A stretch of DNA of 40,000 nucleotides, from assembly GCF_052043865.1 (NCBI RefSeq), contig NZ_JBQEMN010000005.1; one strand, given 5' to 3'. Under the pieces are notes generated by a model. It saw only the letters and a list, made by a program, of their open reading frames with translations, had not been told where the DNA came from and searched no databases. A program made the position numbers and the translations under genes. Origin of the DNA: Halococcus salifodinae. Lineage in GTDB: Archaea > Halobacteriota > Halobacteria > Halobacteriales > Halococcaceae. Numbering within the stretch: the first letter of the stretch is position 1; every line of letters starts with the position of its first letter. Positions 2,302 through 31,231 of this stretch are shown piece by piece.

Positions 2302-3132
2302 TTAGAGATTCAGTTCGACTGCCGACTCGAGTTCGTCGACGCGCTTCATCTCCTCGACGCTATCGAGTGAGACGTCTGCCAACGTGAGTTTCCGAGACTG
2401 GCTGAGTGTCTTAACGTCCTCAACGGTCGAGTCGGAGAGATCGTGCTTCTTTTGGAAGTCATCGAAACTCTGAAGCGACTGATGCTTCTCCCAGCTTTTC
2501 ACTGCGTTCTTCCACTGGGAGACGAAGTTCGATGCCGACCCGCTCGAGTCCATCAACTCCTCATTCAGGAGATTGTGCATATGGTTGAGTGTACGCGAGA
2601 AGTCCCTGTTCTGTCCTCCGAGAATCTTCTGGAGTTCCTCGGCGGCATTGACCTTCGTATTCCATTTCTCTTGCTTGGACTCGATCTGACGCCCAGTTTG
2701 CTCAATTACGTTATCGGCCTGACGCTTCGCTGACTGAATCTGCTCGATCTGCTTCTCTATCTCCGGAGTCAACTCAACTTTCGGGTTGCCCCTATCGTCG
2801 TCGGAGCCGAGTTCACCCTCGTCATCGGTGATTTCACCACTCTGGGCGTTCTCCAGCAGTTCCCCCTGTGTCGCCTCGGCCGCCTTCTTGGCGGTCTGTC
2901 CAGCACTATTAGTCATTGTCGGCGCTGAACCGTCGAGTGCCTCTTCGAAAACCGTCTTGTAGTATCGAAGATCTTCGAGACTTTCGATGAGATCGTCGAG
3001 TTCGCTGTTGACCTCGTTGATGTTGTGCTTCGCGACTGAGACGTGGAACTGGGTGTTTTCTGCTTGCTTGTGCGTCTTGACCTTGTCTTCGAGAGCCTCC
3101 ACGACTGTGGGTAGCGATTGGGTACTGGACAT
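2302..3132 (-). CDS. Hypothetical coiled-coil protein (276 aa)
   Basis: Part of track ORF 2302..3393. I trimmed it to ATG 3132 (MSSTQSLPTVVEALEDK...), which lies 1 nt after the stop of the upstream gene (3134-3136). The sequence is heptad-like and rich in K, E and Q. It sits in an operon. Confidence 0.7.
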   Translation of the reverse strand: MSSTQSLPTVVEALEDKVKTHKQAENTQFHVSVAKHNINEVNSELDDLIESLEDLRYYKTVFEEALDGSAPTMTNSAGQTAKKAAEATQGELLENAQSGEITDDEGELGSDDDRGNPKVELTPEIEKQIEQIQSAKRQADNVIEQTGRQIESKQEKWNTKVNAAEELQKILGGQNRDFSRTLNHMHNLLNEELMDSSGSASNFVSQWKNAVKSWEKHQSLQSFDDFQKKHDLSDSTVEDVKTLSQSRKLTLADVSLDSVEEMKRVDELESAVELNL

Positions 3133-3133
3133 T

Positions 3134-6100: not shown

Positions 6101-6199
6101 TGTGTGGGCTTCCGAGGTGATGAAATGGTCGATCTCGTCGTCATCCCAGTAGCGGTCCATCTCGCCGGCGGTCGAGGGTTGTTGAACGCTGTTGTTCAT
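3134..6199 (-). CDS. Large P-loop NTPase (1021 aa), family unassigned
   Basis: Track ORF. ATG 6199 overlaps the upstream stop (ATGA). Walker A is IVRGEPGSGKSQLCEW and a Walker-B-like motif is RPVLICEDLT. There is a central D/E-rich linker. I recognise no other domain. Confidence 0.8.
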   Translation of the reverse strand: MNNSVQQPSTAGEMDRYWDDDEIDHFITSEAHTAKKTPEQFKETHVDIDRIYADTLTPVGVSGDFVTQNDILESITASNLEDPNRIFIVRGEPGSGKSQLCEWTKYQINGYGEDDNGVEDYVALHVSRSQTRMDQIIDVLTEPLDVDPDVQNIDDLDPNDAASAIVEYMRGIWSTNHLTDQDVQELTNKRDNKSDLREIFAKNIQKYQDALESRDENPDFNLLTRSDFRDLRLQMSFSDKLTENKDLLYTVLKNEAHEYLSRNLVGDFKEQLQEYSQLYQEQDIRPVLICEDLTTFSVLKEQLLDHIFDLSSSHYDIVLGWTIGWEQDNIDDAMTRSDAATYMKGRSKGYLTMTNENGEAYFLDDDASVELTRSYLNAIKRHSGSQSTPDGVEESFDGLYPFNERFVNIAYRQLNDEGSNRKTPRLLLLRVVKHCLKSTWPPYKAMKSNSFVDTPTFEVDMKYDQIYQDVSRWYGVPVEGGIGVKTDVFDAFGIELPNSGEAPAKDDYVVFDKGKGSAVLDKIKNPPAPEHEIDEEDDGDEQEGEDNGPEDDEGGDEEDDEVDVTDESELSEEERERQHKFQEFQDWVISGEEYPSSDTLHDGAIETLERGHDPSRLGNPNASTRSASAIYYARGDSIPVSIQGDQQRQANIDIELEWGAEHADLYTPMLEYGLFETFDTTDTNFDQLRAWADTNVAQFKQDMREEVEDCLPEGLTIEKTLVLGQIFLINAARGTEIEKDSLSTQLVFEDYEHDQSYGKPIVDEFERDSAFGEAFTNLGASSSDISDLIEGFFLLKSNVVDYERLAEARREVAGNFEAHVDDAMMIDTGDLPDAYKIGSTRNQANTNVSTLFSRISDYATEIQRLTAEQDASHIREALEPVERWHDSSHTVDDLVEWFETLYTCAGTMDVTIKSSYEDAHETLTESPGEVKLTSFGEDVEKFQSMDDATGTTLVARLHDFARSSHEQGAWDIYEALDSLIDELQDQEHSTGIDLEHRIQQLNEYTEYERKRQDVIGVTEDL

Positions 6200-7122
6200 T
6201 GTCGGGTCAGGAACTGGGTGAGGGGGTACTGATAGGCCGTTTCGTCCGGGCGCGAGTGGATCGAAACGCGCGTCGCGTCACGCCGGTTTCCGCGAACGTC
6301 GTCGTCGAGGTCCTCCGGTGGAATCTCGACCGCGTTCTGCGAGTCACCGGGATTCGACAGAGAAATTACACCGTCATCCTCCATATTCCGCAGCACGTCG
6401 GCGATCGTGGGGTGGACACGCGGAGTGCCTGCCCGCTCTTCATACACCGCGAAGAGGTTGTCGTTTATCCAATCGAGTGCTCGCCGGAACTCTCCATCCG
6501 TTACTTCCACGTCGTCGTAACTGGGTTCCTCGCTGGAGGTCGTCGGAGCGAGTACGAGAGCGTCGTATGCCAAAGCACGACAGGGGCTGAGGACGAGTTC
6601 GTCTTCCGTCTCAGTTAACAGCCCCAGTTGCTCACACAGCGTCACCCACATATCGATCTTCTCGTCGGTCCAACTGAAGGTGTAGTCTGTCTCGCGCTTC
6701 AGGATGGTACGCAAGTCATCTTGACTGCCACTCACAATCCTGTTTTCCTCAGTCAGCAGCGCACGGTAGACATCAGCGAAGTGCGTCTGTCGCCCCTCCT
6801 GTTGGTTGCAGTGATACAACAATCGCGCTTCGAACTGGAGTCCACCGAACTGAGACTCGTTGATGCGTTCGACCGTGCTCCTGATGTCCCCTGAGGGACT
6901 CTCAACGAGATCGACCGCGTTCAGGAACCGCACTGTATCCTCGACGTGATCGGATTCGATCCCGTTGTCAGTTGGACGCCCAAACTTACTCGCCAGTTCG
7001 TTGACGCTGGTTGCGCTCTGAATGGCGTTGTGGATATGCTTTAATTCCGGTGCTCGCACCGAGATGAACCCGGTGAGTAACTTGTCTGGTTTCGTCTTAG
7101 CCGATGTGTACGTTGTGCTCAT
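6196..7122 (-). CDS. Hypothetical protein (308 aa)
   Basis: Track ORF 6196..7239 trimmed to ATG 7122 (MSTTYTSAKTKPDKLL...). This start overlaps the stop of the upstream gene as ATGA (7119-7122). The composition is acidic. Confidence 0.7.
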   Translation of the reverse strand: MSTTYTSAKTKPDKLLTGFISVRAPELKHIHNAIQSATSVNELASKFGRPTDNGIESDHVEDTVRFLNAVDLVESPSGDIRSTVERINESQFGGLQFEARLLYHCNQQEGRQTHFADVYRALLTEENRIVSGSQDDLRTILKRETDYTFSWTDEKIDMWVTLCEQLGLLTETEDELVLSPCRALAYDALVLAPTTSSEEPSYDDVEVTDGEFRRALDWINDNLFAVYEERAGTPRVHPTIADVLRNMEDDGVISLSNPGDSQNAVEIPPEDLDDDVRGNRRDATRVSIHSRPDETAYQYPLTQFLTRQ

Positions 7123-7985
7123 TCGTTCTCCTGATGACGATAGCGGTAGTCGTCGAGTCGTTCTTCCTCGAATTCCACCAACTCGAGCATGTCTATCATT
7201 CGGTTGGCGACCTGCTGGGTCGGCCCGCGTTCGGTCCACGACCGGAGCGCTTCCCTGATACGCTCGGAGTAATCCTCGAGGACATTATCGACATCCTCGC
7301 GGATGAGATAGTACAGGGGACCCCAGACTGGACTATCAGCAGGAATTTGTGTGTAGTCGAATAGTTCCGGGATGGACCCCGCGTTTAACTCCGCCGCCTT
7401 GTGATGGGCAGAGATCTGATGGAAGTACAGGTTCTGAGTCGTGGACAATGGAAGGTCCGAATCGAGATTGTACTGTAGGTAGCGCTTCAGCAGCGCTTTA
7501 TGATCGACAACCGTACATTCGAACTCATCGATGAACGACTTCCCTGGTTTCTTCGTATATCTGGGCATCGTTGGCGTGCTCGTATCGGTGACAAGCAGGT
7601 AGGGGACCCCTGAAGGTCTGTCCCGTAGCAGTTGGCGAACGATGTCTTGATCGTCGAAGGTATGCTCCTCGTCCTGTAGCTCACCAGTCAGCATCTCCTG
7701 GCTGATGTAGTGAACGAGAGGGAACTCAACGTTGTCCACACCGTTCTCTCGCAGCGACTCGTTTGCGACCATGTCGTATTCGACGAGGCGCAATCCGTTG
7801 TCGTAGATTCCGGGGTGAGCAACCGTTCCAAGTTCGAACTCTGCCAGCAACGGCAACGTCCGAAGTTGCGCACGTGCTTGCGTTCCAGTCTTTGCGAGTT
7901 GCGGATCTCGCATCACGACAAACGAGTCTCGCGTGCCGATGAATTCCGCTATCGCGGGCGTCTCTGTGTTGGGTGGGTCCATCAT
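7119..7985 (-). CDS. Hypothetical protein (about 288 aa), first gene of the five-gene operon; weak PD-(D/E)xK-like spacing
   Basis: Track ORF 7119..8036 starts at a GTG. The first ATG pair is at 7985/7982 (MMDPPNTE...). The motif LLVTD ... VVDHK is only suggestive of a nuclease fold. The start codon is uncertain (7985 or 8036). Confidence 0.6.
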   Translation of the reverse strand: MMDPPNTETPAIAEFIGTRDSFVVMRDPQLAKTGTQARAQLRTLPLLAEFELGTVAHPGIYDNGLRLVEYDMVANESLRENGVDNVEFPLVHYISQEMLTGELQDEEHTFDDQDIVRQLLRDRPSGVPYLLVTDTSTPTMPRYTKKPGKSFIDEFECTVVDHKALLKRYLQYNLDSDLPLSTTQNLYFHQISAHHKAAELNAGSIPELFDYTQIPADSPVWGPLYYLIREDVDNVLEDYSERIREALRSWTERGPTQQVANRMIDMLELVEFEEERLDDYRYRHQENE

Positions 7986-8182
7986 CGTCTGGTGTGCTTG
8001 GGTTCGGCGTCGATGTGGGATGGACGCCGACTGCACGCATCCATTAGTCGTAGCCGTGGCTACGGAACGATACAGCCGTTTTAGGCCGCGTCGAACGGGA
8101 TGCGATCACATATCCTTCAGGGGCAGTTGGTTTGAACCTGTCGGAATTTTTTATTTTATGTTCGCACAGATGGCTCTCCTCG

Positions 8183-8208
8183 TTCCAGGAAGCGACATCA
8201 TCCTGGAA
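8183..8208. promoter_or_regulatory. Perfect 8-bp inverted repeat TTCCAGGA-N10-TCCTGGAA in a divergent intergenic region
   Basis: Read directly from the sequence. It lies in the roughly 390-bp AT-richer spacer between the effector operon and the Csa3-like gene. A second palindrome, CGTAGCC-GT-GGCTACG, is at 8049-8064. Confidence 0.3.
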
Positions 8209-8424
8209 TAGCGTGCGAACTCTTGGCAGTACCATGAGAACAATCAAATAGTTGCCGACGGTGCAACAAACACGGGACAGTTGCGGTGATCTGGAACGAC
8301 AAAGCAGTATATCTGGGCTAATTGATCCATTTGCCACCAATCCGAATCTGATTCTATACAGATTTCACTCCCACTGTTGCGTTGAAGCGGAACAGTAACG
8401 ACCATCCGAAGGAGTAGCAAAAAC

Positions 8425-9078
8425 ATGCGCACCTATCTAGCGCCACTTGGTTTCGACAGTCGACGTGTAGTACGGCCAGTTTTAAGCGAAGGTCTTGACA
8501 CCGGCGACCACATCCTGTTGTTACAACCCGCTACCGGATCAGATCAAGGAGATAGCGCGCTCGAGGAGGTAGAGGACATCCTTACACAGGTCGTTCCCGA
8601 TCTCGACCCAGTAGCTGAAACCTTACCCTACTCGGATTTCGTAGAAACGACGCTACACTGTGCCGACCTCATACAGGCGTCTGACGGCGAGACAATTGTC
8701 ATTCTTGGTGGAGGTGCACGAGAATTACTTCTCCCTCTGACCATCGCGACGTTCACCGCTACAGATGATGTGGACACCATCCTTCAGATAGGAGATATCG
8801 ACAGCAGCGTTCGACGGCTCCCTCAGCTGAACCTCCGAGGGAACGTTTCAGACGCCGAGGCAGGGTTGCTAGCAGATCTAGGTATGCTGGATACGCCACT
8901 TTCCATCACCGAAATAGCAGACGGATTGGACAAATCAAAGAGCACGATAGCCCGCCATGTCAGTAGCCTTGAATCCGAGGGATTCGTCTCGGCCAGCAAG
9001 AACGGTCGGTTGAAGAATGTCTCGATAACCGACAGCGGGCGGGTATTCCTGAAAACGTGGCACCGACCGCAGATCTGA
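8425..9078 (+). CDS. Csa3-like regulator (CARF-like Rossmann N-domain plus C-terminal winged HTH)
   Basis: Track ORF with an ATG start. The N-terminus MRTYLAPLGFDSRRVVRPVL, then DHILLLQP, then IVILGGGARELLLPL, parallel the Csa3 layout. The C-terminal part LSITEIADGLDKSKSTIARHVSSLESEGFV is a wHTH. Confidence 0.6.
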   Translation: MRTYLAPLGFDSRRVVRPVLSEGLDTGDHILLLQPATGSDQGDSALEEVEDILTQVVPDLDPVAETLPYSDFVETTLHCADLIQASDGETIVILGGGARELLLPLTIATFTATDDVDTILQIGDIDSSVRRLPQLNLRGNVSDAEAGLLADLGMLDTPLSITEIADGLDKSKSTIARHVSSLESEGFVSASKNGRLKNVSITDSGRVFLKTWHRPQI

Positions 9079-9147
9079 CGGTGGGATTTTCGCTGGGGTT
9101 AGAAATGGATTATGGCAGTCTTCATCACCTTCGCCGTTTAGCGCACA

Positions 9148-10302
9148 TCATATTTCTTCCTGTATGAAATCGGCGTCGATCCTCGATCGCTCTTCGTCGA
9201 CTGCCGCATCGAGTACCCGGCTACACACAGAGAGAACCTGTCGGATGTTCCCCTGTGATCGCTGGTGTATTATTGAGAGACTCTCTTCGGTGAATGGATC
9301 AACACCCCCTGTTCCATTTGTCCGTGCGGGAGCAATATACGTTGACACCAATTTGTTGATATGGTCGTCGGTTAGTGGTCGCAGGGCCACTTCTTGCCCA
9401 ATACGCTCAGAGAACGCGTGGTACTCGCTCATTACGTCCTGCCAGACCTCCGGTGCACACCCAAAGAGCATACAGAGACCATGACTGTTCTGGTCCATCA
9501 AGTGACGGATGCTGTTCAGCGTCGCTTGTTCGGCTTTCGCGCTGAGTCGAGCAATGCTCTCGAACTCATCAACGAAAACGAAAACACCTGTATAACCGAG
9601 ATCAAGCAGGAGGTTCTTCAGCGCCGTGAACGCTCGGACACTGGTAGTATCGTCGTCGAGTGCACTATGGATCTCCATTTCTTTGCGCTGCTCATAGCGA
9701 ATGCCCTCGGCAGTGAGCCACTGCCACGCGTAGAGGTTCGTATCCTCGTACACCATATGTACGATCGCACGAGCGAAGTCAGCGAACTTCGTCACGTTGT
9801 TGAGTTGCTGGACAGCCTCCGGAACCAGTTCCGATAGTAATACTTCACCGTCATCGATTAGTTGCTCTACCGTGCTTGCGTCCGTTGGATTGCAATCGGT
9901 GGTGTTGCGGGCCACCTGAGCGAGGTACTCGTAAGCGAGCGTCTGAATGCGGTCGAACCCGAGATCGTAGACGAACTCGTGATAGATATCGCGGAAACCT
10001 TCGCCCGGCTGGGCGACGTAGCCGACGACGACATCCTCACGGTCGCGCACGAGCGAGCGTGTGTACTTGAGCGTGTGTGACTTCCCATTTCCGTACTTTG
10101 CGGTGACAACGAGATGCTTCGACTTCCCGGTCGAGAGCATCGTCGAGACGGTGTCGCTGATGGCTCTCGTGGCGTGCTCCTGCCCACAGTAGAGTGCTGG
10201 GTCGTTATCCGGAACTGGACTGTATGGGAAGGGATTCTCCTCTAAGCCGAATTGGGAGTAGTCGCGCTGTTCGTCCGTAATGCTGAATGTATCGTTGGTC
10301 AT
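9148..10302 (-). CDS. AAA+/ORC-like P-loop ATPase (384 aa)
   Basis: Track ORF. Walker A is VVTAKYGNGKSHTL and Walker B is GVFVFVDEFE. ATG 10302 overlaps the upstream stop (ATGA, 10299-10302). Confidence 0.8.
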   Translation of the reverse strand: MTNDTFSITDEQRDYSQFGLEENPFPYSPVPDNDPALYCGQEHATRAISDTVSTMLSTGKSKHLVVTAKYGNGKSHTLKYTRSLVRDREDVVVGYVAQPGEGFRDIYHEFVYDLGFDRIQTLAYEYLAQVARNTTDCNPTDASTVEQLIDDGEVLLSELVPEAVQQLNNVTKFADFARAIVHMVYEDTNLYAWQWLTAEGIRYEQRKEMEIHSALDDDTTSVRAFTALKNLLLDLGYTGVFVFVDEFESIARLSAKAEQATLNSIRHLMDQNSHGLCMLFGCAPEVWQDVMSEYHAFSERIGQEVALRPLTDDHINKLVSTYIAPARTNGTGGVDPFTEESLSIIHQRSQGNIRQVLSVCSRVLDAAVDEERSRIDADFIQEEI

Positions 10303-11201
10303 GTCTCTTTCTCCTGAGTAAAGGTGAGGTTGCGGTCGTAGACCGCGAGGTAGTAGTATTGTTTGCCGAACTGTTCGATACCGGCCATCACGCGCTCGGT
10401 GGATTGGTCGGTCGTGACGAGACCCTCCTTACTTCCGAGGTCGATCTCCTTGATGCCGAGCTGGGCCTCTTTCGCCCCCGTATCCATCGGCGCTCCCGAG
10501 AGTTCGATATGGCCAACGTTCTGCTGAGCAAGTCGTCTCAGCGCCTCGTCGAAGACACTTCGGGGGCAGCCATGACGTTCACAGAAGTGCTCTCGGAGCA
10601 ACGGGATCGAGAGGTATCGTTGTCGGAGGTCGACGCCTGCCGTCTCTTCGAGATCGTCGTACACCGCGAGCAGCGCGAACGGGAAATTCGACGGTACTAC
10701 GTTCCGCTCGACGGAGTAGTAGCCCCCCGTAAACGAATTCCGCTGAACAGTACCGAGGCGTTCAGCCCAGTCGCCCACGACCTCGACACTCGTTTGGTTG
10801 TACGAATGGTTGGTGAATTCTTCAAGCGATTCGAGTTCTTCGAGCACTGCTTCAAGCGAGGCAGGGGCAACGTTGTCGAGTGCTTCCAGAAACGCACTGT
10901 AGTGTGGGCTTTGCGTGGCGAGCACGTCACTCACCTTGGACCACTCCTCAGCACGAACCGCCTCAAGAAATCGATCGCCAATATGCGTACTCTCATACGT
11001 TTCGTCCTCATCCTCTTGCTGTTCCGATCCGAGCAGACCGATCCGCAGTGTCTCGAGAGTAGTTTCACGGGCGCGGCGGTGGGTCACATCAAGTGCCGAT
11101 TTGATGTCCTCTAGCGTCCGTGGGCCATCCTCGCAGATATGGGACGTTTCCACGAGTCGCGCCAGCGTTACAGGTCGTATGGTTGGGCGTTCGTCGCTCA
11201 T
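10299..11201 (-). CDS. Hypothetical protein (about 300 aa), possible N-terminal wHTH
   Basis: Track ORF 10299..11207 starts at a GTG. ATG 11201 (MSDERPTIRPVTLARLVE...) lies 2 nt after the TGT stop (11204-11206). It is coupled on both sides. Confidence 0.7.
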   Translation of the reverse strand: MSDERPTIRPVTLARLVETSHICEDGPRTLEDIKSALDVTHRRARETTLETLRIGLLGSEQQEDEDETYESTHIGDRFLEAVRAEEWSKVSDVLATQSPHYSAFLEALDNVAPASLEAVLEELESLEEFTNHSYNQTSVEVVGDWAERLGTVQRNSFTGGYYSVERNVVPSNFPFALLAVYDDLEETAGVDLRQRYLSIPLLREHFCERHGCPRSVFDEALRRLAQQNVGHIELSGAPMDTGAKEAQLGIKEIDLGSKEGLVTTDQSTERVMAGIEQFGKQYYYLAVYDRNLTFTQEKET

Positions 11202-11203
11202 TA

Positions 11204-12238
11204 TCACGTGAGTCTCCTGACCTGCTGTTTCGCCTGTCGGTACGCCCGTTTGGTGACCTCGTTACCCTGAAACCGTAGGTCGAGGTACGCCTCCACGTCC
11301 TCGTTGGCAGCAACCATGTAGCGGAAGCGTCGGAGTTCCATCGTGAGCGCCCAGAGATTGTGCTTCGTCAGGGCATTACGATCCTCACGCAACTCCGTAA
11401 ACGGCGTGTCACGACAGACTGGGCACGAACACGGGAGGTACGAGAGTTCGGTGACGTGTTTGAGTTCCTGACCACCAAACCCTGGAACCAGATAATTCCG
11501 GTTTCCAGCGCTCCGGATAAATGCCGAGGAGTCGAAACTATCGACCCCCAGGTACAGCAGTAGGGGTTGGTATACTAACCCCCCCAATCCGTACACATGC
11601 AGGTGCTTGTCGGTCGCCCGTCTGGCCGCAAGTATTATACTTGTCACCTTTTTGTAATCTGTTCTGACCGGAACGAGACTCCCGAGCGCGTACCCGTCGA
11701 AATCGCCGTTACGCTCTAAGTACCGGACGTTGTTCTGTACCGTCTCCGGATCGAGACCATGGATACTGGCGAACAGTAATTCCTCACCGTCATGTTCGTC
11801 ACTCGCTTCAACGGCATACTCCGCACTATCGGAGATGCGCCGCTGGTTTTCCCTGTCTCGGTTCTCTCGGGAGATGGGCCGATCTACCGTCCCGAGGATG
11901 TCCGCGCCGATCTGACGCTGTGTTTCGAGCGTCCGTGCTGGGGTAGTGTCGACGTCTCCCGCTTGGAAGTCGAACCCCCCACTGTCGGCGAAGATGACGG
12001 TTTCCTCTGGGATGTCCATCTCTTCACGGAGAGTAGCCCCGTTGAGGAGGCGATTCCACTGTGGATCACGTTGTCTGATCGCTCGTGCATTCACCATCGC
12101 TGTCCGAAGGTCCGGAATCGCATCGGCGTACGCTGGCGTGTTGTCGGAGGATCGTTTGCCGATGTTCCGAACCGGGAACAGGACGGGCGTCTTAATGCAC
12201 CCGTGTGGCGTGTTGAGCGTTCGTTGTCTGTACAGCAT
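11204..12238 (-). CDS. Minimal TGT-family transglycosylase (ArcTGT-like catalytic core only, 344 aa)
   Basis: Track ORF 11204..12295 starts at a TTG, trimmed here to ATG 12238 (MLYRQRTLNTPHGCIKTPVLFPV). Motifs: FADSGGFD, HVYGLGG, LGVDSFDSSAF, and the zinc motif CSCPVCR...KHN. No C-terminal PUA, C1 or C2 region is present. Confidence 0.85.
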   Translation of the reverse strand: MLYRQRTLNTPHGCIKTPVLFPVRNIGKRSSDNTPAYADAIPDLRTAMVNARAIRQRDPQWNRLLNGATLREEMDIPEETVIFADSGGFDFQAGDVDTTPARTLETQRQIGADILGTVDRPISRENRDRENQRRISDSAEYAVEASDEHDGEELLFASIHGLDPETVQNNVRYLERNGDFDGYALGSLVPVRTDYKKVTSIILAARRATDKHLHVYGLGGLVYQPLLLYLGVDSFDSSAFIRSAGNRNYLVPGFGGQELKHVTELSYLPCSCPVCRDTPFTELREDRNALTKHNLWALTMELRRFRYMVAANEDVEAYLDLRFQGNEVTKRAYRQAKQQVRRLT

Positions 12239-12275
12239 GCGCGACGCGCTCGGGTAGCTCGGGTTCCGTGTTAAA

Positions 12276-12293
12276 GCTTTGTGTGGACAAAGC
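12276..12293. promoter_or_regulatory. Inverted repeat GCTTTGT-N4-ACAAAGC in the divergent TGT / wHTH promoter region
   Basis: Read directly from the sequence. It abuts a TTTAA element about 32 nt upstream of TGT ATG 12238. Confidence 0.3.
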
Positions 12294-12355
12294 AATCACG
12301 GCGAGGAGGTACTGAGGACGGAGGATGTATAGTGAGCGGGGGCAACGCCAAGAGT

Positions 12356-12640
12356 ATGCACTCCGCGGTCGACGAAGTAGTCTGTCCGAAGCGGTCGCTG
12401 GAGATCTTAGACTATCTCAGCGAACACGACGAATCGAACTTCAGTACGATTGAGGATGCTGTGCCGACATCGAGCGATGTAGTGACTGAGCGATTGGAAA
12501 CGCTCCAAGAGTACGGGTTAGTTGAGCGCGAAGAGCGGAGTTCACGCAACGTCCGGTATTCGCTCACTCAGGATGGGGAAACGTTTCTCACCCATCTCGA
12601 AGAAGTAGATGAGTTTCTCCAAAACTCCCGCGGCGACTAG
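12356..12640 (+). CDS. Small winged-HTH transcriptional regulator (94 aa)
   Basis: Track ORF 12281..12640 starts at a GTG, trimmed here to ATG 12356 (MHSAVDEVVCPKRSLEILDYLSEHDESNFSTIEDAV...VRYSLTQDGETFL). It is divergent from the TGT operon. Confidence 0.7.
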   Translation: MHSAVDEVVCPKRSLEILDYLSEHDESNFSTIEDAVPTSSDVVTERLETLQEYGLVEREERSSRNVRYSLTQDGETFLTHLEEVDEFLQNSRGD

Positions 12641-13344
12641 TCGTACGAACCGAGTCCGGACTGGCGTGTTGGTTCCGTCGTACAGTACTCGACGACTTCC
12701 GTGAAAGAATCGATCGTTGTACCCTCCGCCCTGTGTGCGGCAAATTGCTTTAGATACTGTCCTTTTAGTCCAATAACGGTACTTCCCTGTTCTTTCGCCT
12801 CGGCCGTTCGTGCGGGGATGGAAATGACATTTGGCCGTTGCTCGGCGTCGGCTTCACGATTGAACAGCACGACCATCGTCGAGTCGGAGAATGTATCAAG
12901 CAGTCGGGAGAGGTCGAGTGCCTCGTAGTAGTCACTCCCGAGTGCAAGGAAGACGAGATCGTAGGCGGGGTCGTCGTCTAGTCGATTGAGCAGGTCGCTC
13001 TGGATCTCTAGTTCCGAGGATCGCTCGTGGACGCTCTCAGTATCGTAGTCTTGGAACGTCACTTCGTAGGGCGGGAGTTCGGTCGCCTCACCAACGAAAC
13101 CGAATCCTGCACTGATATAATAGCGATCAACGGTGTCTCCGGACTCCCGAAGACGATCAACGGCTACGTCGATATACTGCTGTTGACGGCCAGTATAGAG
13201 GTCGTGAGCGGAATAGGTCGGCGTCCGTTCCCGCTCACGGAGTTCGGGGAGGGAGAAATCGTCGATGGTCTCGGCGTCAAACGAGTCGAACCATTCGGGC
13301 GATTGCTTCGATCCCGAACACTGGTCGACGACGAGTACACGCAT
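12637..13344 (-). CDS. Hypothetical protein (235 aa) coupled to the DpdA-like gene; N-terminal VLVVDQCSGSK motif
   Basis: Track ORF 12637..13350 starts at a TTG. ATG 13344 lies 2 nt after the upstream stop (13347-13349). I recognise no family with confidence. Confidence 0.7.
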   Translation of the reverse strand: MRVLVVDQCSGSKQSPEWFDSFDAETIDDFSLPELRERERTPTYSAHDLYTGRQQQYIDVAVDRLRESGDTVDRYYISAGFGFVGEATELPPYEVTFQDYDTESVHERSSELEIQSDLLNRLDDDPAYDLVFLALGSDYYEALDLSRLLDTFSDSTMVVLFNREADAEQRPNVISIPARTAEAKEQGSTVIGLKGQYLKQFAAHRAEGTTIDSFTEVVEYCTTEPTRQSGLGSYD

Positions 13345-13346
13345 CC

Positions 13347-15554
13347 TCAAAACTCAGTAAGACCCGACTGCTGAAGATGTTTCGGGAGGAACGATTCTTG
13401 GTAGCCCAGACGACTGAGCACGGCGCTGCGTAGTTCGCTAGGTTCCTCGTGGACGTGGACTGTGCAGTCTGTCTCTTCGAGGGCCGAGCGAACCTTCTCA
13501 GGAAGCGTCCAATCGCTTCCATCGACGTAGAGGTCCTGATACCGCTCACAGACGGTCGCAAGCTCGTCCGCCATCCAATCCATATCGAGTGAGATCGTCG
13601 TCGGTGGATCGTCCCACCACTCTTGGACCCCATCGGCGGTGGCGACGCCGATCTCTGCGACGGGCAGGTCATGAACGTGCGTCCAGAGCGTTTCGTGTTC
13701 ATCCCGGAGATATTCTTCGCCAGTATCGCTCCGTGAAAGCGCACTGCTCCCACGGGTGATGACCAGCACCTTCGGCAAGGCACGCTCGAACTGATCGTAG
13801 AAGCGTTGCGTGTTGTGGAACCCACGTCGGCGGTTGCGATTGTTCCCACGCCAGATGGCGACTTCAATGCCATGTTCACGACAAATAGTACAGTCACACT
13901 CCCTCCAGGGTTCGGCCCGGAGGACGCGCTCGTAGGAATCAAGATTGTTCCCGTCTCCGACGAACTCGGCATACGTTTCGAGGAGTACCCAGAGTTGGTC
14001 AAACGTTCCGACCGTCCCAGTGTTTGTCTCGCGGCGCTCGATAGTGTCGATCTTCGTCGGGGCGCGACCCTCGATTACCTCAGTGGCCGTCTTGATGAGA
14101 TTCTTGTACGCAGTGAACGAAAGGGGATTCTCGGAGCCGTCGTCGCGGAGGAGTTTGATGAGTCGAGTCCGGAAGTCATCACTGAAATTGGCTTTGAGTT
14201 CACGTCCGTATTCGTAGTGATCACGGAAGGAACTCGTGATAGGCCGAAGCGTCGTCTCGTCGAACTGGGCGTCGTGCCGGTGCTCACGGATATACATGGG
14301 GAGATTGGCAAGGGCTGTGAGCGCAGTATCCTGCCATGAACGGAGGGCGTCGACGATCGACTCGTCCTTATCGAACGCCCGGAGCGCAATAAGTAGTTCC
14401 TGAGCGCGAAGTGCCCACTCGATACTGGTTTCGAGGTCTGCACTGTACGGCGGGTATCGTACTCGAATCGCATCGAACCGTCGAGTGCTGTCGAGGTGAT
14501 AGTTATCGCCACCGGTCCACGCCGCACGGAGCATACTGGCGCTGTCGAAACTCGCCATGCCAGCACGGCCGATCGTATCGAACGCGCCGGTCTTGGCGAA
14601 CCCGAACACGTGGGTATCGATTCGCGTACGATACGTTCGCTCGTGATGTTTGACCGCGTTCCCGACCGCAGAGACTGTGCGTTTGACGGCATCTTCGCTG
14701 CTTCCGGCAACTCCACCGATACCGATGTACTGGTACCCCAAGTCAAGCACGTCCTCAACGGCTCTCTCGTAGGAGTCAGGGTCCCACCCTTGGATGGCGA
14801 CCATTAGTCGGAAGGAATAGTCACCATCTTGGTAAAAATCCTGCATCTCGGCGGCGTTGTCGAGAGTCAACTCGTACCGGAAGGCCATATCGTCATCTCG
14901 ATACACTGCCCGAGGATCATCTTTGAGTCGCGTGAGAACGTCTTGTTTCTCTCCCTCGAAATCAGCAGCGCGGAAGCTGTCGACTTCGCTATCAGCAGTA
15001 TCTCGGAGTGTAGAGTCGTACTCAGCAACGTAGTCTGGCCACTCGTCCGGCCAAGTGTCGGTCATCACGTCAGTATCACTCTCGGCCAACCATTCCGGGA
15101 GATCACTGGTGGTAAACTCGTCGCCGAGGGCACGATCATCAAGATAGAGTCGGCTGGTATGTCCGGAGCCTAGGACGAGATGATCAATTGTGACCCCGAC
15201 ATCAACCTCAAGCGTCTCGTAGAACTCCAGCATGTCCCAATTCCCGTACGGTGGAAAAGGGAGTTGCTTGTAACCCCATGCCCCACAGTCACTGATCGTG
15301 GGGAGCCACTCCGGGAGATCGAGGCGTGGATCATCGTAAACACCGTGTGAAGTGATACGGTCGAACTTTGTGGGCGAGTCCTCAACTTGTTCGCGAGAAA
15401 TGAGGACACCATCGATCGGTATCGACTCGCGATCGAAGACATCCCAGATGTATGCGAGGTCACGGTCTGCAGGAGAAAGGTCCGAGTGCTCATCATGGAC
15501 GAAATCGTACGCCGCGTCTACGTGGTCGTCCCACTCAGGGACATAGAAGCGCAC
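13347..15554 (-). CDS. DpdA-like TGT-superfamily transglycosylase, long form (735 aa)
   Basis: Track ORF. GTG is the only available start, because an in-frame stop lies at 15564-15566. The N-terminus is MRFYVPEWDDHVDAAYDF. Other motifs: ISDCGAWGY (Asp position equivalent to DSGGFQ), HVFGFAKTG...MASFDSASMLR, and the zinc motif CDCTICREHG...GFHN. There is an extra C-terminal region of about 130 aa. Confidence 0.75.
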   Translation of the reverse strand: MRFYVPEWDDHVDAAYDFVHDEHSDLSPADRDLAYIWDVFDRESIPIDGVLISREQVEDSPTKFDRITSHGVYDDPRLDLPEWLPTISDCGAWGYKQLPFPPYGNWDMLEFYETLEVDVGVTIDHLVLGSGHTSRLYLDDRALGDEFTTSDLPEWLAESDTDVMTDTWPDEWPDYVAEYDSTLRDTADSEVDSFRAADFEGEKQDVLTRLKDDPRAVYRDDDMAFRYELTLDNAAEMQDFYQDGDYSFRLMVAIQGWDPDSYERAVEDVLDLGYQYIGIGGVAGSSEDAVKRTVSAVGNAVKHHERTYRTRIDTHVFGFAKTGAFDTIGRAGMASFDSASMLRAAWTGGDNYHLDSTRRFDAIRVRYPPYSADLETSIEWALRAQELLIALRAFDKDESIVDALRSWQDTALTALANLPMYIREHRHDAQFDETTLRPITSSFRDHYEYGRELKANFSDDFRTRLIKLLRDDGSENPLSFTAYKNLIKTATEVIEGRAPTKIDTIERRETNTGTVGTFDQLWVLLETYAEFVGDGNNLDSYERVLRAEPWRECDCTICREHGIEVAIWRGNNRNRRRGFHNTQRFYDQFERALPKVLVITRGSSALSRSDTGEEYLRDEHETLWTHVHDLPVAEIGVATADGVQEWWDDPPTTISLDMDWMADELATVCERYQDLYVDGSDWTLPEKVRSALEETDCTVHVHEEPSELRSAVLSRLGYQESFLPKHLQQSGLTEF

Positions 15555-15685
15555 CGTTGTTAGTCACCGATAGCGGGTTGCCACGTCTGGTATATGAAGG
15601 TGCTCAATCTACAGCGGTGGTATTCGTTAGAGACAGATGGCGATGAGCAGCTACGCCTAAGTGTAGTGGCGTACAATCCGAGATC

Positions 15686-15985
15686 ATGCCCGTCATCACC
15701 TCCGATCGCGTCCTCGAAAACGTAGAGCACATCTTGTCAAGTGGATCTGGCGTGCTGGATTTTGCTGTGAGCGGCGAGGATGAGTACTATACATGGTGGG
15801 GAACAGAAAAATCGAACTGGGAAATCAGCGGTGTGGGCCACATCGAAAACGCTGAGGAAGACAGAATGGCCATCTATCCCATTGGAGATGCATTCTATTG
15901 CGAAATCTCAGCCGACGGGGAGGAGTTCAATACCGGTCCCGTGAAATGTGTATCAGAAGAATCGAAAGAGTCGGCATCTGTATAA
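15686..15985 (+). CDS. Small acidic hypothetical protein (99 aa)
   Basis: Track ORF with an ATG start. It fills the gap between the DpdA-like gene and queC on the opposite strand. The composition is acidic. There is no homology evidence. Confidence 0.45.
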   Translation: MPVITSDRVLENVEHILSSGSGVLDFAVSGEDEYYTWWGTEKSNWEISGVGHIENAEEDRMAIYPIGDAFYCEISADGEEFNTGPVKCVSEESKESASV

Positions 15986-15992
15986 TCGCTAT

Positions 15993-16703
15993 TTATGTGA
16001 GTGGATCGGAGATGCCAGCCTTTTCGAACGCTTCCTCCCGCTCGATACATGCAGGACATTCTCCACAGGGGTCTCCATTCTCGTCGTTGTAGCAACTGAA
16101 TGTGACTTTCCAGTCGACCTCCAAGCGCTCGCCAAGTTGCAGCACTTCCGGCTTCGAGTGGTTGATGATCGGTGTATTGATTCGAATCATGTGTTGGTCA
16201 GTCGACTTGTTGATCGCATTCTCAGCGACTTCAAGAAACGTTGGACGACAGTCCGGGTAGTCCTCTCCATCGTTTTGTTGGGCACCGTGATAAAGAACAA
16301 TATCTTCACCAGTCTCGGAATTGTGTTCGGCGATCGCAGCAGCAGTTGTGAGGAAATGGAGGTTTCGTTGTGGAACGTATCCGACGCTGTGGTCATCGTC
16401 GGTCGTGTGCTCGCGGTCGTACTCTTTGTCCTCGATTGTTCCTTCGGCGAATTCGCTGAATACAGCGCGATAATTGCAGGTGTAGAGAGGTATATCGAGA
16501 CCATCTGCCTGCTTCTCTGCGTTGGCACGTTCGATGTCTTCGGTTTGCTGGCCATAGTCGATATGGATAGCTGCGACGCTATCGTGCTCTTCAGACGCTT
16601 TCTTCAAACAAACGGCCGAGTCGATACCACCTGAGAGGAGAACGAATGCCTTCGATTCGCTGGAATTGTTGTCGTGCATTGTCGGAGTGTGTCTGTTATT
16701 CAT
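15993..16703 (-). CDS. queC: 7-cyano-7-deazaguanine (preQ0) synthase QueC
   Basis: Track ORF. The motif AFVLLSGGIDSAVC is a PP-loop, and there is a C-terminal Cys cluster FSCY...CGECPACIERE. At about 236 aa it has no fused amidotransferase domain. Confidence 0.9.
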   Translation of the reverse strand: MNNRHTPTMHDNNSSESKAFVLLSGGIDSAVCLKKASEEHDSVAAIHIDYGQQTEDIERANAEKQADGLDIPLYTCNYRAVFSEFAEGTIEDKEYDREHTTDDDHSVGYVPQRNLHFLTTAAAIAEHNSETGEDIVLYHGAQQNDGEDYPDCRPTFLEVAENAINKSTDQHMIRINTPIINHSKPEVLQLGERLEVDWKVTFSCYNDENGDPCGECPACIEREEAFEKAGISDPLT

Positions 16704-16773
16704 TCACCGTGCGCGAACTGGTCGAAATAGACGACCGGCATGCATTTTTCACCCGATTATTTACCATTCTGTC

Positions 16774-17553
16774 TCACCTTCCCGCTTCGTCGTTCCAGAG
16801 GTTCACGTGCAGGCGTGGAGTGTATCGATACCCATGTTCCATCGCGAGGTCGGCAACCTGTGCACGCTTCTGTGCGATTTCGGCCTCAGTCTGTCCTTCC
16901 GGCATGAGCAAAACGTCCTTGTTTCGCACGCGAGCACTTGTCTGCTGACGAATACGCTCGATAATGTCATTAAGCTCCTTAATGTCCGCTGAAGAGGTAA
17001 CAACGAACTTGAGTTGAAACGGGTAGTTCTCAACCAGGTGCATCAGCGCCGTCATATCGATCCGGCGCTCTTCGTGCTCTTCACTCCATTCGCCATCGCC
17101 TTTCGGATCTTTCGATGCTGTGGGTGTACTGCTAGAGAGTTTCGGGCTGATGCTTGCGAGATCAATTGCCGCATCTGGGCAGATTGTTCCGTTCGTTTCA
17201 ACTGTTATATGGTAACCCCTGCTGGCGAGGGTGTCGATGAGATTTGTCGTTTCGTCATGAATCAACGGTTCACCACCGGTGATAACGACGTGATCCGCTT
17301 TGGTGTGGGTAGAGACTTCTTCGATGATCTCTTCGGTGCTCATCCATGCGTGTGTGGGTTCCCAAGACGTATGATACGAATCGCAAAACCAACAGCGAAG
17401 ATTACAGCCACTTGTACGAACAAAAACTGACGGGATACCCGCGAGTTTACCCTCTCCTTGCATCGAATAAAAGAGTTCGTTGATTGGGAGACTCTCTGTT
17501 CCGGATCCATCCTGTGGTCTCTCGGTCGTATCGACTTCTGAACTGACCGGCAT
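16774..17553 (-). CDS. queE: 7-carboxy-7-deazaguanine synthase QueE (radical SAM)
   Basis: Track ORF 16774..17613 trimmed to ATG 17553, which lies 1 nt after the queD stop. Motifs: FYSMQGEG, and the radical-SAM cluster motif VFVRTSGCNLRCWFCDS. Confidence 0.9.
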   Translation of the reverse strand: MPVSSEVDTTERPQDGSGTESLPINELFYSMQGEGKLAGIPSVFVRTSGCNLRCWFCDSYHTSWEPTHAWMSTEEIIEEVSTHTKADHVVITGGEPLIHDETTNLIDTLASRGYHITVETNGTICPDAAIDLASISPKLSSSTPTASKDPKGDGEWSEEHEERRIDMTALMHLVENYPFQLKFVVTSSADIKELNDIIERIRQQTSARVRNKDVLLMPEGQTEAEIAQKRAQVADLAMEHGYRYTPRLHVNLWNDEAGR

Positions 17554-17554
17554 A

Positions 17555-18022
17555 CTATCGTGAGGGGTGCGTCCCCAGTTCGCTTGTCTCACGCACCTCA
17601 ACATCCACTTCATTAACCGATGCAGGTAATCGGTCTCGTAACCTGTTTTCGAGAATAATACCCATCACCTCAGCCGTGGGTGGATGGTCGAGAACGACAG
17701 TGGCATCGCTATCGCCGCTTTGTTCGAACGCGTCGATGAGTGGGTCACCACGTTCGAGCAGAAATCGGTGATCCCACTCCTCAACGATATCGGTCACAGT
17801 ACCTTTGTCGACGACCCACCCCTCTTCTCGGAGTGTTCCAGTAACCGTGACAGCAATTTTGTAGTTGTGTCCATGAGGGCGGCTACACTTTCCCTCGTGA
17901 TGGAGAATCCGATGTCCAGTGCTAATACGGATCGGACGGTCTCGTCCAATCGAAAGCACCCGTGATTCATCTGAGAGTGTTACGTCACGTAGTCCATCTT
18001 CCTTGGCTACACTCTGGGGCAT
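17555..18022 (-). CDS. queD: 6-carboxy-5,6,7,8-tetrahydropterin synthase QueD
   Basis: Track ORF with ATG 18022. Contains the CSRPHGHNY motif (CxxxHGH). Confidence 0.9.
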   Translation of the reverse strand: MPQSVAKEDGLRDVTLSDESRVLSIGRDRPIRISTGHRILHHEGKCSRPHGHNYKIAVTVTGTLREEGWVVDKGTVTDIVEEWDHRFLLERGDPLIDAFEQSGDSDATVVLDHPPTAEVMGIILENRLRDRLPASVNEVDVEVRETSELGTHPSR

Positions 18023-21494: not shown

Positions 21495-22232
21495 TCAATC
21501 AGTCGTGTTTGTGAGCACTTGGTCAACGCGACCATCATCGGCCTCGGCGTCGAGATACCACGCGCGGCGATCCTCGTTCTTGTCGATACTCATGATGGTT
21601 GATCGACCGATGTTCGGCGTATCGGCTGCGACCGATCGGTAGGATTCGCCGTCGTCGACGCGCTCGATCGCGCTGCGCATCTCCAGGTAGCTGATCTCGC
21701 CGGCGTCTCGGTCAGCCTCGTGAATCAGTTGGAGGTAGCCGTCGTCGTCGCGGCGAAAGCCCTTCGGGACTCTGCCGAGCCACTTGCCCTCGCGTTGCGC
21801 GCGCGAGACGCCCGATTCGATCCGTTTGGTGAGCCGGCGTCGTTCCTCCTCGGCGACCGCTGCGGAGATGTCGGCGATGAGCTTTCCCGTCCCATCAGGG
21901 CGGACCTCCTCGACCCATCCGTCGGTGATCGCGACCGTGGTTCCAGCGTCCTCGCAGTGCTCGAAGAAGCGCTGGTAGATGCTACCGAGTCGTGCAAGCC
22001 GGGAGATCTCCCATACGACCACATACTCGTAGCTCTCGGATTGGATCGCGTCGACGAGTTCGGTGAACTGTTCGCGACCGGGATCGGCTCCCGACTGGGC
22101 GAGGTCGACGTACCGGTCGATCTCCGACGAATCAACCTCATGCTGCGATAGCCACTCGTCGATCGCATCGCGCTGGTGAGAGGTTTCCTGATCGTCGGTC
22201 GAGGCGCGAATGTAGGTGGCGTAGCGGGCCAT
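21495..22232 (-). CDS. Small serine recombinase (resolvase/invertase type, 245 aa)
   Basis: Track ORF 21495..22394 trimmed to ATG 22232 (MARYATYIRASTDDQETSHQRDAI...). It carries the catalytic Ser motif YIRASTDDQ and has a C-terminal HTH-like region. Confidence 0.85.
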   Translation of the reverse strand: MARYATYIRASTDDQETSHQRDAIDEWLSQHEVDSSEIDRYVDLAQSGADPGREQFTELVDAIQSESYEYVVVWEISRLARLGSIYQRFFEHCEDAGTTVAITDGWVEEVRPDGTGKLIADISAAVAEEERRRLTKRIESGVSRAQREGKWLGRVPKGFRRDDDGYLQLIHEADRDAGEISYLEMRSAIERVDDGESYRSVAADTPNIGRSTIMSIDKNEDRRAWYLDAEADDGRVDQVLTNTTD

Positions 22233-22247
22233 TCTGAGGGCGTCTTT

Positions 22248-22332
22248 CTGACAGGGTGGATTGTATATAAAGAACGGGGGTTGCTGACAGTCTGTCAGTA
22301 GCCATGTGGTTATTGACAGGGGGGGGGGGGGG
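22248..22332. repeat. Cluster of TGACAG motifs (including the palindrome CTGACAG-T-CTGTCAG) around the recombinase TATA box, plus a G14 homopolymer
   Basis: CTGACAG at 22248-22254. TATATAAA at 22264-22271, which reads TTTATATA on the gene strand. CTGACAGTCTGTCAG at 22284-22298. TTGACAG at 22313-22319. A run of 14 G at 22319-22332. Confidence 0.5.
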
Positions 22333-22403
22333 TTGAGAAAGGGCTGGTTCCGATCCGACAATCGGTCCACACTATCATCGGCTGTGGCTGCCACACCAAA
22401 TGG

Positions 22404-29681: not shown

Positions 29682-29715
29682 GGTTCTTGTCTCACCGTGT
29701 TGATCTCGGTCGCGG

Positions 29716-31176: not shown

Positions 31177-31231
31177 CTTGTGGATTACTCCGCTCCCCAG
31201 CGAACACGACCACGCCAGGGGAGTGCCCGCA

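Follow-up and report, generated by a model that had tools for sequence, protein, structure and literature searches.

The locus described here raises the question of which nucleic acid is modified by an unusually long transglycosylase of a haloarchaeon, and what the parts that lengthen the enzyme contribute. The gene occupies positions 13347..15554 on the minus strand of a 40,000-nt stretch of Halococcus salifodinae DNA (RefSeq assembly GCF_052043865.1, contig NZ_JBQEMN010000005.1), hereafter called the window, and it encodes a 735-aa protein with a GTG start and a TGA stop. The product is a long form of DpdA, a transglycosylase that puts preQ0 in the place of guanine in double-stranded DNA and the signature enzyme of 7-deazaguanine DNA modification, which has been characterised only in bacteria, where the DpdB ATPase is required, and in viruses. 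We propose, with a probability of roughly 0.6 for the explanation as a whole, that the long DpdA is a DNA preQ0 insertase tethered to the sliding clamp PCNA. What is new here is the domain architecture of a known family, DpdA, found in an archaeal Dpd-like module.

The long DpdA scores 262.9 bits against the NCBIfam DpdA equivalog model NF041059, for which the curated cut-off is 200, and matches the PADLOC DpdA model at 1e-70, in both cases in three separated stretches. A phmmer search of the Protein Data Bank (PDB) retrieved DpdA of Salmonella Montevideo (7ui4, E 1e-39) as the only real sequence match among solved structures, and the alignment covers residues 2-130, 238-416 and 540-592 of the long DpdA. 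With these three scores the resemblance to DpdA is not due to chance, and the separation of the matching stretches shows the insertions directly. The Pfam model of tRNA-guanine transglycosylases (TGT; PF01702) gave no match to the protein at E <= 0.01. The GTG start is credible, since all homologues open with MRFYVPEWDD. A word-indexed search yielded more than 100 close relatives, and every one of them bearing an organism name belongs to Halobacteria; the full-length architecture is rare, being found in a handful of 50%-identity clusters in an exhaustive search of 1.8 billion representatives. Judged by these relatives, the long form is a family-wide haloarchaeal feature. An earlier description of the gene made from the DNA letters alone, referred to below as the sequence-only reading, covered neither this feature nor the C-terminal tail and the second TGT gene of the operon that are described below.

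An AlphaFold2 (AF2) model was computed from an alignment of 56 family members (A1), which is also the basis of the statements on invariance made here; its mean predicted local distance difference test score (pLDDT) is 81.5 and its predicted template modelling score 0.73. Foldseek comparison of the model with the PDB placed 7ui4 first (E 1.9e-16, template modelling (TM) score 0.67 on the target), with bacterial, archaeal and eukaryotic tRNA TGTs lower. Residues were mapped onto the bacterial enzyme (bDpdA) through the pairwise alignment with 7ui4, the chain numbering of which equals that of the paper plus 20, and roles were taken from the same publication (PMC10164549), which describes D95 as acid/base and D256 as nucleophile, together with D130, F99, H181, L236 and the zinc ligands C368, C370, C373 and H395. 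The N-terminal part of the barrel (aa 1-130, 15165..15554, minus strand), aligned to 7ui4 chain residues 25-156, carries D89, W93 and D124, the counterparts of the general acid/base D95, of F99 and of the base-recognition aspartate D130. The middle part (aa 238-372, 14439..14843, minus strand), aligned to chain residues 183-351, carries Q255, F317 and D337, the counterparts of H181, L236 and the nucleophile D256. The zinc site and the last barrel helix (aa 548-592, 13779..13913, minus strand) read C553-x-C555-x2-C558-x21-H580, then RNRRRGFHN, and align without gaps and with identical spacing to the bDpdA ligands; the CxCx2Cx(21)H site that pins the Ins8 domain to the last barrel helix in DpdA is thus present. 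All of these residues are invariant in the 56 members, and the functional residues are also kept in 39 of 40 more distant DpdA relatives.

The sequence-only reading had picked out the same core motifs, namely ISDCGAWGY (D89), FGFAKTG...FDSASMLR (D337) and CDCTICREHG...GFHN (C553, C555, C558, H580), and had described a DpdA-like transglycosylase lengthened by insertions. The family models, the alignment with 7ui4 and the structure prediction with fold search bear this description out: a TGT/DpdA barrel was found, with the catalytic pair of aspartates and the zinc ligands conserved. By its sequence and predicted fold, the product of 13347-15554 is a member of the DpdA family with intact catalytic residues, and we regard this membership, together with the domain anatomy described below, as highly probable. 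Its substrate is probably DNA. The whole haloarchaeal family bears the NCBI/RefSeq product name 'queuine tRNA-ribosyltransferase tRNA-guanine transglycosylase' (e.g., homologues P0006, P0010 and P0016); the proteins pass NCBIfam's own DpdA cut-off, and the 'queuine tRNA-ribosyltransferase' label is misleading and probably in need of correction. At the base-recognition position (residue 255, 14790-14792), Gln is found in the long DpdA and in all 39 aligned DpdA representatives, as in tRNA TGTs, and the S. Montevideo DpdA with its His (H181) appears from this alignment to be an exception.

The extra length of the long DpdA totals about 330 residues in four parts: an insertion termed A, a larger Ins8, a C-terminal domain and a disordered tail. 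Spacings between anchor residues were measured in a MAFFT alignment of the long DpdA with the 39 DpdA representatives. D124 and Q255 are separated by 131 residues versus 43-58 in typical DpdAs, and insertion A (aa ~131-237, 14844..15164, minus strand) accounts for ~80 extra residues between them. It is predicted to consist of three short strands and several helices (pLDDT 75-90), is very acidic (isoelectric point 4.05), and contains an invariant WPxEWPxY motif. The distance from D337 to C553 is 216 residues versus about 105-112 in ordinary DpdAs; Ins8 (aa ~373-547, 13914..14438, minus strand) is roughly doubled, extending ~105 residues beyond that of ordinary DpdAs, and is modelled as all-helical with pLDDT around 90. 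In bDpdA, Ins8 is a family-specific helical domain that was placed on the DNA by a small-angle X-ray scattering model (PMC10164549). From H580 to the end of the protein there are 156 residues, as compared to 15-45 in ordinary DpdAs. The sequence-only reading had correctly given the length of 735 aa, the position of the zinc motif far into the protein (it begins at residue 553) and the presence of a C-terminal region past the last DpdA-like stretch, which comprises 143 residues. Neither insertion A nor the Ins8 enlargement matched any Pfam family, and they can be assigned by position and secondary structure only. Two other representatives, P0138 and P0169, have a large Ins8 without the other extras, so that the parts were acquired separately. 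Both insertions adjoin the catalytic face in the model and probably widen the DNA-binding surface.

The C-terminal alpha/beta domain (aa 593-725, 13380..13778, minus strand) can be traced to the DUF6884 (DpdC-like) type through a chain of profile comparisons. When residues 588-735 were modelled alone, an alpha/beta domain with pLDDT 87.6 was obtained, with the last ten residues disordered. No Pfam family matched the domain, and profile searches found no sequence relative of it in the PDB. The PDB fold candidates, including TFIIH p34/VWA-like chains, AF0587 (2q07, TM 0.53), Argonaute MID, PTS IIA and designed Rossmann folds, were set aside as generic alpha/beta structures, and weak Pfam matches in single members (GDSL lipase, Ago_N_3, HAD) as noise. 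The family DUF6884 (PF21818) is characterised by conserved CxxxK and LSAxxG motifs, a proposed active site, and is a distant relative of YaaA/DUF328, the family of DpdC (PMC11701544). The profile of the C-terminal domain (A2) matched C-terminal regions in the shorter DpdAs P0131, P0140, P0141 and P0171, from which profile A5 was built; these regions carry the CxxxK and LSAxxG signature and have sub-threshold matches to Pfam DUF6884. Comparison by hhalign gave 98.5% for A2 versus A5 (E 1.5e-15, over 140 columns including the terminal tail) and 98.1% (E 6e-14) for A5 versus A6, a profile of four DpdA-fused, bona fide DUF6884 domains with Pfam DUF6884 scores of 62-66 bits. In addition, a search with the A5 profile finds PF21818 proteins at a level significant database-wide, a tblastn search from the long DpdA extends into the A5-type domains of the shorter fusions, and the top fold match of the C-terminal domain in the viral structure library BFVD is a DUF6884 protein of Halobacterium phage ChaoS9, if only at E 7e-3. 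Direct hhalign comparison did not support a DUF6884 copy, and the relationship emerges via the intermediate A5.

The signature residues are missing from this domain family-wide: the positions of the motif Cys and Lys are taken by G602 and L606, respectively, SAxxG is now TAxG, and the family consensus reads LVxTxGxxxLS ... VTAxGVHEWW. By the profile chain, the domain probably stems from a DUF6884 fused directly to DpdA and has since degenerated, and a relic of this kind would most likely serve as a non-catalytic scaffold or a DNA-binding module. The suggestion of the sequence-only reading that the extra parts supply partner functions holds in so far as the C-terminal domain derives from a DpdC-like DUF6884; it fails in that the signature residues are lost, an intact copy is encoded just downstream, and none of the extra parts is DpdB-like.

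This intact copy, a DUF6884/DpdC-like protein of 235 aa, is encoded at 12637..13344 (minus strand), with its ATG at 13344, two bases past the DpdA stop. Both of its motifs, CxxxK (CSGSK) and SAxxG (ISAGFG), are preserved; it matches Pfam DUF6884 at E 1.7e-4 and, weakly, the PADLOC DpdC model at 5e-8, and the profile of haloarchaeal downstream DUF6884 proteins (A4) gave 95.1% with A6 and 93.4% with A5. In 11 of 18 related reference-genome loci this DUF6884 is fused to the end of the long DpdA, resulting in the order DpdA, degenerate DUF6884, intact DUF6884. The Halospeciosus flavus plasmid NZ_CP122313 carries two copies of the module (L010, 3651-6646, and L018, 10001-12995), in both of which the DpdA-DUF6884 frame is split into two overlapping open reading frames (ORFs; 791+265 aa and 479+594 aa), perhaps because the genes are frameshifted pseudogenes or because of errors in the sequencing.

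The long DpdA ends in QSGLTEF-COOH (aa 729-735, 13350..13370, minus strand), which resembles a PCNA-interacting peptide (PIP) and closes a disordered tail, residues 726-735 having pLDDT <50 in both the full-length and the separate domain models. Unfused DpdAs end in Q-x-x-[LI]-x-[ED]-[FYW]-COOH, a motif present in 99 of 101 unfused homologues, and the downstream DUF6884 ends in a PIP-like QSGLGSYD of its own (nt 12640-12663). The specificity of the tail was assessed with 843 ORFs of >=100 aa from the window and the 18 loci: 15 of them end in the motif, and 14 of these 15 are DpdA, a separate DUF6884 or the fused protein (Fisher p 7e-21). In unfused systems both proteins are tailed; in fused systems the internal tail has been lost and the final C-terminus keeps it. 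The other products of the module described below, TGT2, a 302-aa protein and an ATPase, never carry the tail. The sole other ORF ending in the motif (GQQSLYDY) is found in Natronorubrum sp. DTA7 (L001, 8352-8858, plus strand), where it encodes a 168-aa hypothetical protein and lies immediately upstream of the long DpdA.

Published PIP motifs have the form QxxhxxAA at the extreme terminus, while those of Haloferax volcanii proteins are given as QxxLxxFx, where the last position may be Met or even Asp and the pocket on PCNA is shallower, and RNase HII of Archaeoglobus fulgidus is likewise without the second aromatic. In the long DpdA, Q729, L732 and F735 stand at the free C-terminus and the eighth PIP position is absent, so that the tail fits the H. 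volcanii form and not the strict canonical motif; its loss of the second aromatic resembles the H. volcanii proteins and A. fulgidus RNase HII. Archaeal PIP-box proteins such as Fen1, RNase HII, PolB, PolD, NreA and NucS likewise have Q-x-x-[LI]-x-x-[FYW] at the extreme C-terminus after a disordered linker.

A wider survey covered the last 25 residues of 133 non-haloarchaeal DpdA representatives, with the expectation calculated from how often the motifs occur in the remainder of these proteins. PIP-type motifs were found in 12 of the 133 versus 1.3 expected (p 1e-8), and beta-clamp-type motifs, Q[LM]x[LM][FLI], in 8 versus 0.19 expected (p 3e-11), while the controls gave 12 PIP-type and 0 beta-type motifs in 876 ORFs and 1 and 0, respectively, in 31 stand-alone DUF6884 proteins. 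A DpdA of Heimdallarchaeia has a textbook QTKIDNFF that is conserved in its cluster, a Bacteroidetes member ends in GLDLF, and a member ending in QLALF sits among RES-Xre, RadC and Mrr genes; beta-type endings at the very C-terminus are QLALF, QLELF, QLSLI and QLTLI. Representatives with clamp motifs include P0142, P0146, P0150, P0155, P0162, P0170, P0176, P0192, P0203, P0223 and P0254. The tail is also kept on a fusion fragment (L020) whose downstream neighbourhood is devoid of the haloarchaeal partner genes, and this persistence argues for a universal host target. In the literature searched, no paper linked DpdA, or any DNA-hypermodifying transglycosylase, to a clamp, and the enrichment of clamp motifs across the DpdA family appears to be unreported so far. 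On the strength of these motifs, tethering of the long DpdA to PCNA by its tail can be considered an evenly balanced possibility. One could hypothesise further, and more tentatively, that archaeal 7-deazaguanine modification takes place on the sliding clamp, with DpdA and DUF6884 docked via PIP peptides, hypermodification thereby coupled to replication or repair and DpdB unneeded, and that clamp tethering is a recurrent feature of DpdAs in both domains of life, archaeal members having tails of the PIP type and bacterial ones beta-clamp tails of the QLxLF type; we place this joint proposal slightly below even odds.

On the minus strand the genes follow the order QueD, QueE, QueC, long DpdA, DUF6884, TGT2, the 302-aa conserved protein and a BrxD-like ATPase. 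The preQ0 synthesis genes comprise QueC (15993-16703, minus strand; Pfam QueC 1e-51), QueE (16774-17613, minus strand; Pfam radical SAM 8e-18) and QueD (17555-18022, minus strand; QueD/PTPS 1e-20). QueC is 31-35% identical to QueC of the related loci, the values being 60-66% for QueE and 65-73% for QueD. The QueC/E/D stretch has 82% DNA identity to a Halococcus dombrowskii plasmid, and the plasmid database contained no significant DNA match to the window outside the Que genes. The divergence of QueC as compared to QueE and QueD and the plasmid match suggest that the preQ0 cassette was exchanged independently of the DpdA module.

TGT2 (11204..12238, minus strand; 344 aa from a conserved ATG) matches Pfam TGT at 6e-29 and aligns to residues 89-345 of 1iq8. 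It consists only of a catalytic domain like that of the archaeal TGT (ArcTGT), which retains the zinc site and the two Asp residues but has no C1, C2 and PUA; it adjoins the long DpdA in 13-14 of the 18 loci and is also found in a distant locus (L023). The 302-aa protein (10299..11207, minus strand), with a possible N-terminal winged helix, is syntenic in 13 of the 18 loci and in L023. It had no Pfam, NCBIfam or PADLOC match, and a PDB profile search gave a weak MarR-like N-terminal stretch only; none of these searches supported it as a DpdB/ParB analogue. The AAA ATPase (9148..10302, minus strand; 384 aa; Pfam BrxC_BrxD 5.7e-17) is 71-77% identical in 13 loci and 35% identical in L023. The genes for the 302-aa protein and the ATPase always follow TGT2, with overlapping start and stop codons, which suggests a functional unit. 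The run of DpdA, DUF6884, TGT2, the 302-aa protein and the ATPase recurs, on chromosomes as well as plasmids, in 13-14 of the 18 loci. In L023, a 48%-GC contig with a TFIIB-like gene, the last three genes occur in the same order, at 31-38% identity, beside a short DpdA-DUF6884 fusion (P0171); since the trio recurs there, the module is older and wider than Halobacteria. No NCBIfam or PADLOC match to DpdB was detected among the scanned ORFs of the window (2302-18022), and the sole match there to the restriction genes DpdD-K was a weak DpdH-like one (44.8 bits versus a cut-off of 450), conserved in 3 of the 18 related loci.

The DpdH-like protein (1021 aa, with an AAA_22 N-terminus) belongs to a stretch at 2302-8036 (minus strand) that also encodes two uncharacterised proteins (347 and 305 aa) and, at 363 aa, a protein bearing a zinc ribbon of the topoisomerase-I type. 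These genes are common only to loci L012-L014, and the stretch may be the variable 'restriction' half of the island. A Csa3-like regulator with a CARF-type Rossmann domain and a helix-turn-helix (8425-9078, plus strand) is encoded divergently inside the island and is conserved in L012 and L013. An HxlR-type winged-helix ORF (12281-12640, plus strand) occupies the ~400-nt gap between DUF6884 and TGT2; the 18 related loci have no such ORF and a gap of only about 70-90 nt, and the ORF looks like a lineage-specific insertion or regulator. About 3.5 kb past QueD lies a serine resolvase gene (21495-22394, minus strand), which may mark the island boundary, and beyond it an XPB helicase and its Bax1 (DUF790) nuclease partner (28329-31278, minus strand), which are ordinary repair genes. 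The resolvase, with housekeeping XPB/Bax1 beyond it, suggests that the DpdA cluster is a mobile island. The module is present in only some haloarchaea, often on plasmids.

Taken together, the following mechanism can be proposed. QueD, QueE and QueC, encoded just upstream, would make preQ0. The DpdA barrel, which has the Cys3His zinc site and in which D337 would act as the nucleophile and D89 as the acid/base, would exchange G for it in duplex DNA. A larger surface for binding DNA or partners would come from insertion A, the larger Ins8 and the relic DUF6884, and the intact DUF6884 would convert the inserted base, by analogy with DpdC, which turns preQ0 into 7-amido-7-deazaguanine (ADG). The QxxLxx[FY] ends of DpdA and DUF6884 most likely dock both proteins on PCNA, so that newly replicated or repaired DNA would be modified, and the clamp tethering, perhaps with the BrxD-like ATPase, would stand in for the DpdB ATPase required by bacterial DpdA. 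The data themselves establish the family membership, fold, conserved residues and domain anatomy of the long DpdA, the origin of its C-terminal domain, how conserved and specific the tail is, and the synteny, while DNA as substrate, the product, binding to PCNA and the functions of the insertions are inferred from them.

Other roles of the enzyme have to be considered. Following the NCBI product name, the protein could be a TGT with tRNA as its substrate, serving archaeosine synthesis: it is a member of the TGT superfamily, has Gln (Q255) where tRNA TGTs also have Gln, and adjoins preQ0 synthesis genes. Such a role is highly improbable, because the DpdA equivalog cut-off is passed while the Pfam TGT model is not matched, the best structural match is DpdA and not a TGT, and the Ins8 helical domain of DpdA is present while the C1, C2 and PUA tRNA-binding domains of ArcTGT are absent, the C-terminal domain being derived from DUF6884 and not from PUA. 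Moreover, its obligate neighbour is a DpdC-like enzyme, and the gene resides in a mobile island with a resolvase and defence-type genes, found in some haloarchaea only and often on plasmids. The conservation of two TGT-superfamily genes in one operon also allows for a division of labour by analogy with eukaryotic QTRT1/QTRT2, of which one paralogue is catalytic and the other is not; TGT2, which keeps all catalytic residues, would then insert the base and the long DpdA would be a non-enzymatic or sensing subunit. We consider this improbable, since every catalytic and zinc residue of the long DpdA is invariant, unlike in inactive paralogues of the QTRT2 type.

With regard to the C-terminal parts, the terminal peptide might bind something other than PCNA, either docking onto a component of the module itself (TGT2, the 302-aa protein or the BrxD-like ATPase) or acting in autoregulation by folding back onto DpdA, and the rest of the anatomy would stand. 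The absent eighth position, the degeneration of the motif in some fused proteins, and the occurrence of both tailed proteins in one module, where they could share an internal partner, are consistent with such docking. It is nevertheless doubtful, although possible, given that the same type of tail occurs on DpdA-DUF6884 fusions without the haloarchaeal partners (L019, L020), that other DpdA lineages have canonical PIP or bacterial beta-clamp motifs, which points to the clamp as the common target, and that the tail fits the published haloarchaeal consensus. The relic domain, for its part, might not be dead: a new active or ligand site could have arisen from HDLPVAE...G.HEWW...RY, and its ligand might be free preQ0 or the flipped base, or it might carry out some other chemistry on the inserted base. 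The residues W624, D629, P631, E634, G636, G642, E645, W646, W647, P651, R671 and Y672 are invariant or nearly so among sequences 40-77% identical, and selection has retained the domain in every family member. However, CxxxK and SAxxG, the motifs proposed to be catalytic, have been lost, the domain is always accompanied by an intact DUF6884, and the conserved residues could just as well belong to a contact surface with the barrel or a partner, so that a new site of this kind seems unlikely.

Several observations weigh against the proposal of a PCNA-tethered DNA preQ0 insertase. No haloarchaeal genomic DNA containing 7-deazaguanines was reported in the literature searched. The second TGT of the module could be the real DNA-inserting enzyme. 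In the tail, the canonical PIP box is short of its second aromatic, roughly one fused protein in three has a degenerate QTTLxx end with no aromatic, and only a few clamp-motif proteins could be placed taxonomically (Heimdallarchaeia and one Bacteroidetes metagenome-assembled genome (MAG)). The link between the C-terminal domain and DUF6884 is transitive, since direct hhalign comparisons of A2 were negative (0.3% with A4 and 0.5% with A6), and it hangs on an intermediate group of four sequences; a Foldseek search of the PDB with the domain gave nothing significant, with YaaA (5caj) outside the top 50. Finally, the domain keeps strongly conserved residues of its own (HDLPVAE...G.HEWW), which may point to a new activity rather than to a scaffold alone.

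The preQ0 insertase of the bacterial Dpd restriction-modification system (7ui4) shares with the long DpdA a TIM-barrel core without the N-terminal lid of TGTs, the correspondence of D95/D130/D256 to D89/D124/D337, the zinc spacing, a helical Ins8 and clustering with preQ0 synthesis genes and a DpdC-type enzyme. The long DpdA differs in its additional ~330 residues (insertion A, a ~2x Ins8, the degenerate DUF6884 and the PIP-like tail), in having Gln in place of H181 of the S. Montevideo enzyme, in the absence of a detectable DpdB and of DpdD-K other than the weak DpdH-like match, and in its archaeal host; the haloarchaeal Dpd-like module falls outside the definition of the bacterial DpdA-K system. 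Also related are shorter DpdA-DUF6884 fusions of ~560-610 aa (e.g., P0131, P0140, P0171, P0156 and P0162; Bacteroidetes MAG protein OLE78699.1), in which the DpdA core is followed by a DUF6884-type domain and several of which have a terminal clamp-type motif; one of them, P0171, adjoins the same trio of TGT2, 302-aa-type and BrxD-like genes. In these fusions, however, DUF6884 keeps CxxxK and LSAxxG, and insertion A and the enlarged Ins8 are lacking, whereas in the haloarchaeal form this DUF6884 has degenerated and a second, intact one has been added. The downstream gene product is placed in the DUF6884 branch of the 'cantaloupe-fold' DNA-binding superfamily, which also includes DpdC/YaaA (DUF328), and by descent the same holds for the C-terminal domain; DpdC proper is of the DUF328 and not the DUF6884 type, and the C-terminal domain is without CxxxK and SAxxG and has no direct Pfam match. 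Haloviruses such as HVTV-1 encode DpdA4, one of the viral DpdA1-4 enzymes, which insert 7-deazaguanines into DNA with no need of DpdB. DpdA4 is a distant TGT of the DUF6610 type, whereas the long DpdA scores as a bacterial-type DpdA and resides in a cellular island or plasmid. No haloarchaeal cellular Dpd system or long DpdA was described in the literature searched.

The family described here points to a cellular archaeal version of the 7-deazaguanine modification system, with a different architecture and no recognisable DpdB, and the finding corrects a widespread database label. In the tails, it bears a conserved and specific signal, at the level of sequence, for both enzymes acting on DNA as putative clients of the clamp. 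Its C-terminal part is a clear case of a fused partner domain decaying to a pseudo-enzyme while a fresh copy takes over. How DpdA reaches a base inside duplex DNA is a standing question, to which clamp tethering, if true, would provide a simple and testable answer. Eukaryotic DNMT1 uses a PIP box to couple maintenance methylation to replication, and if tethering to PCNA holds, the haloarchaeal system would be an archaeal counterpart of such replication-coupled maintenance. It can also be predicted that many haloarchaea, with laboratory strains and plasmids among them, carry 7-deazaguanines in DNA, which would affect restriction, transformation and sequencing.

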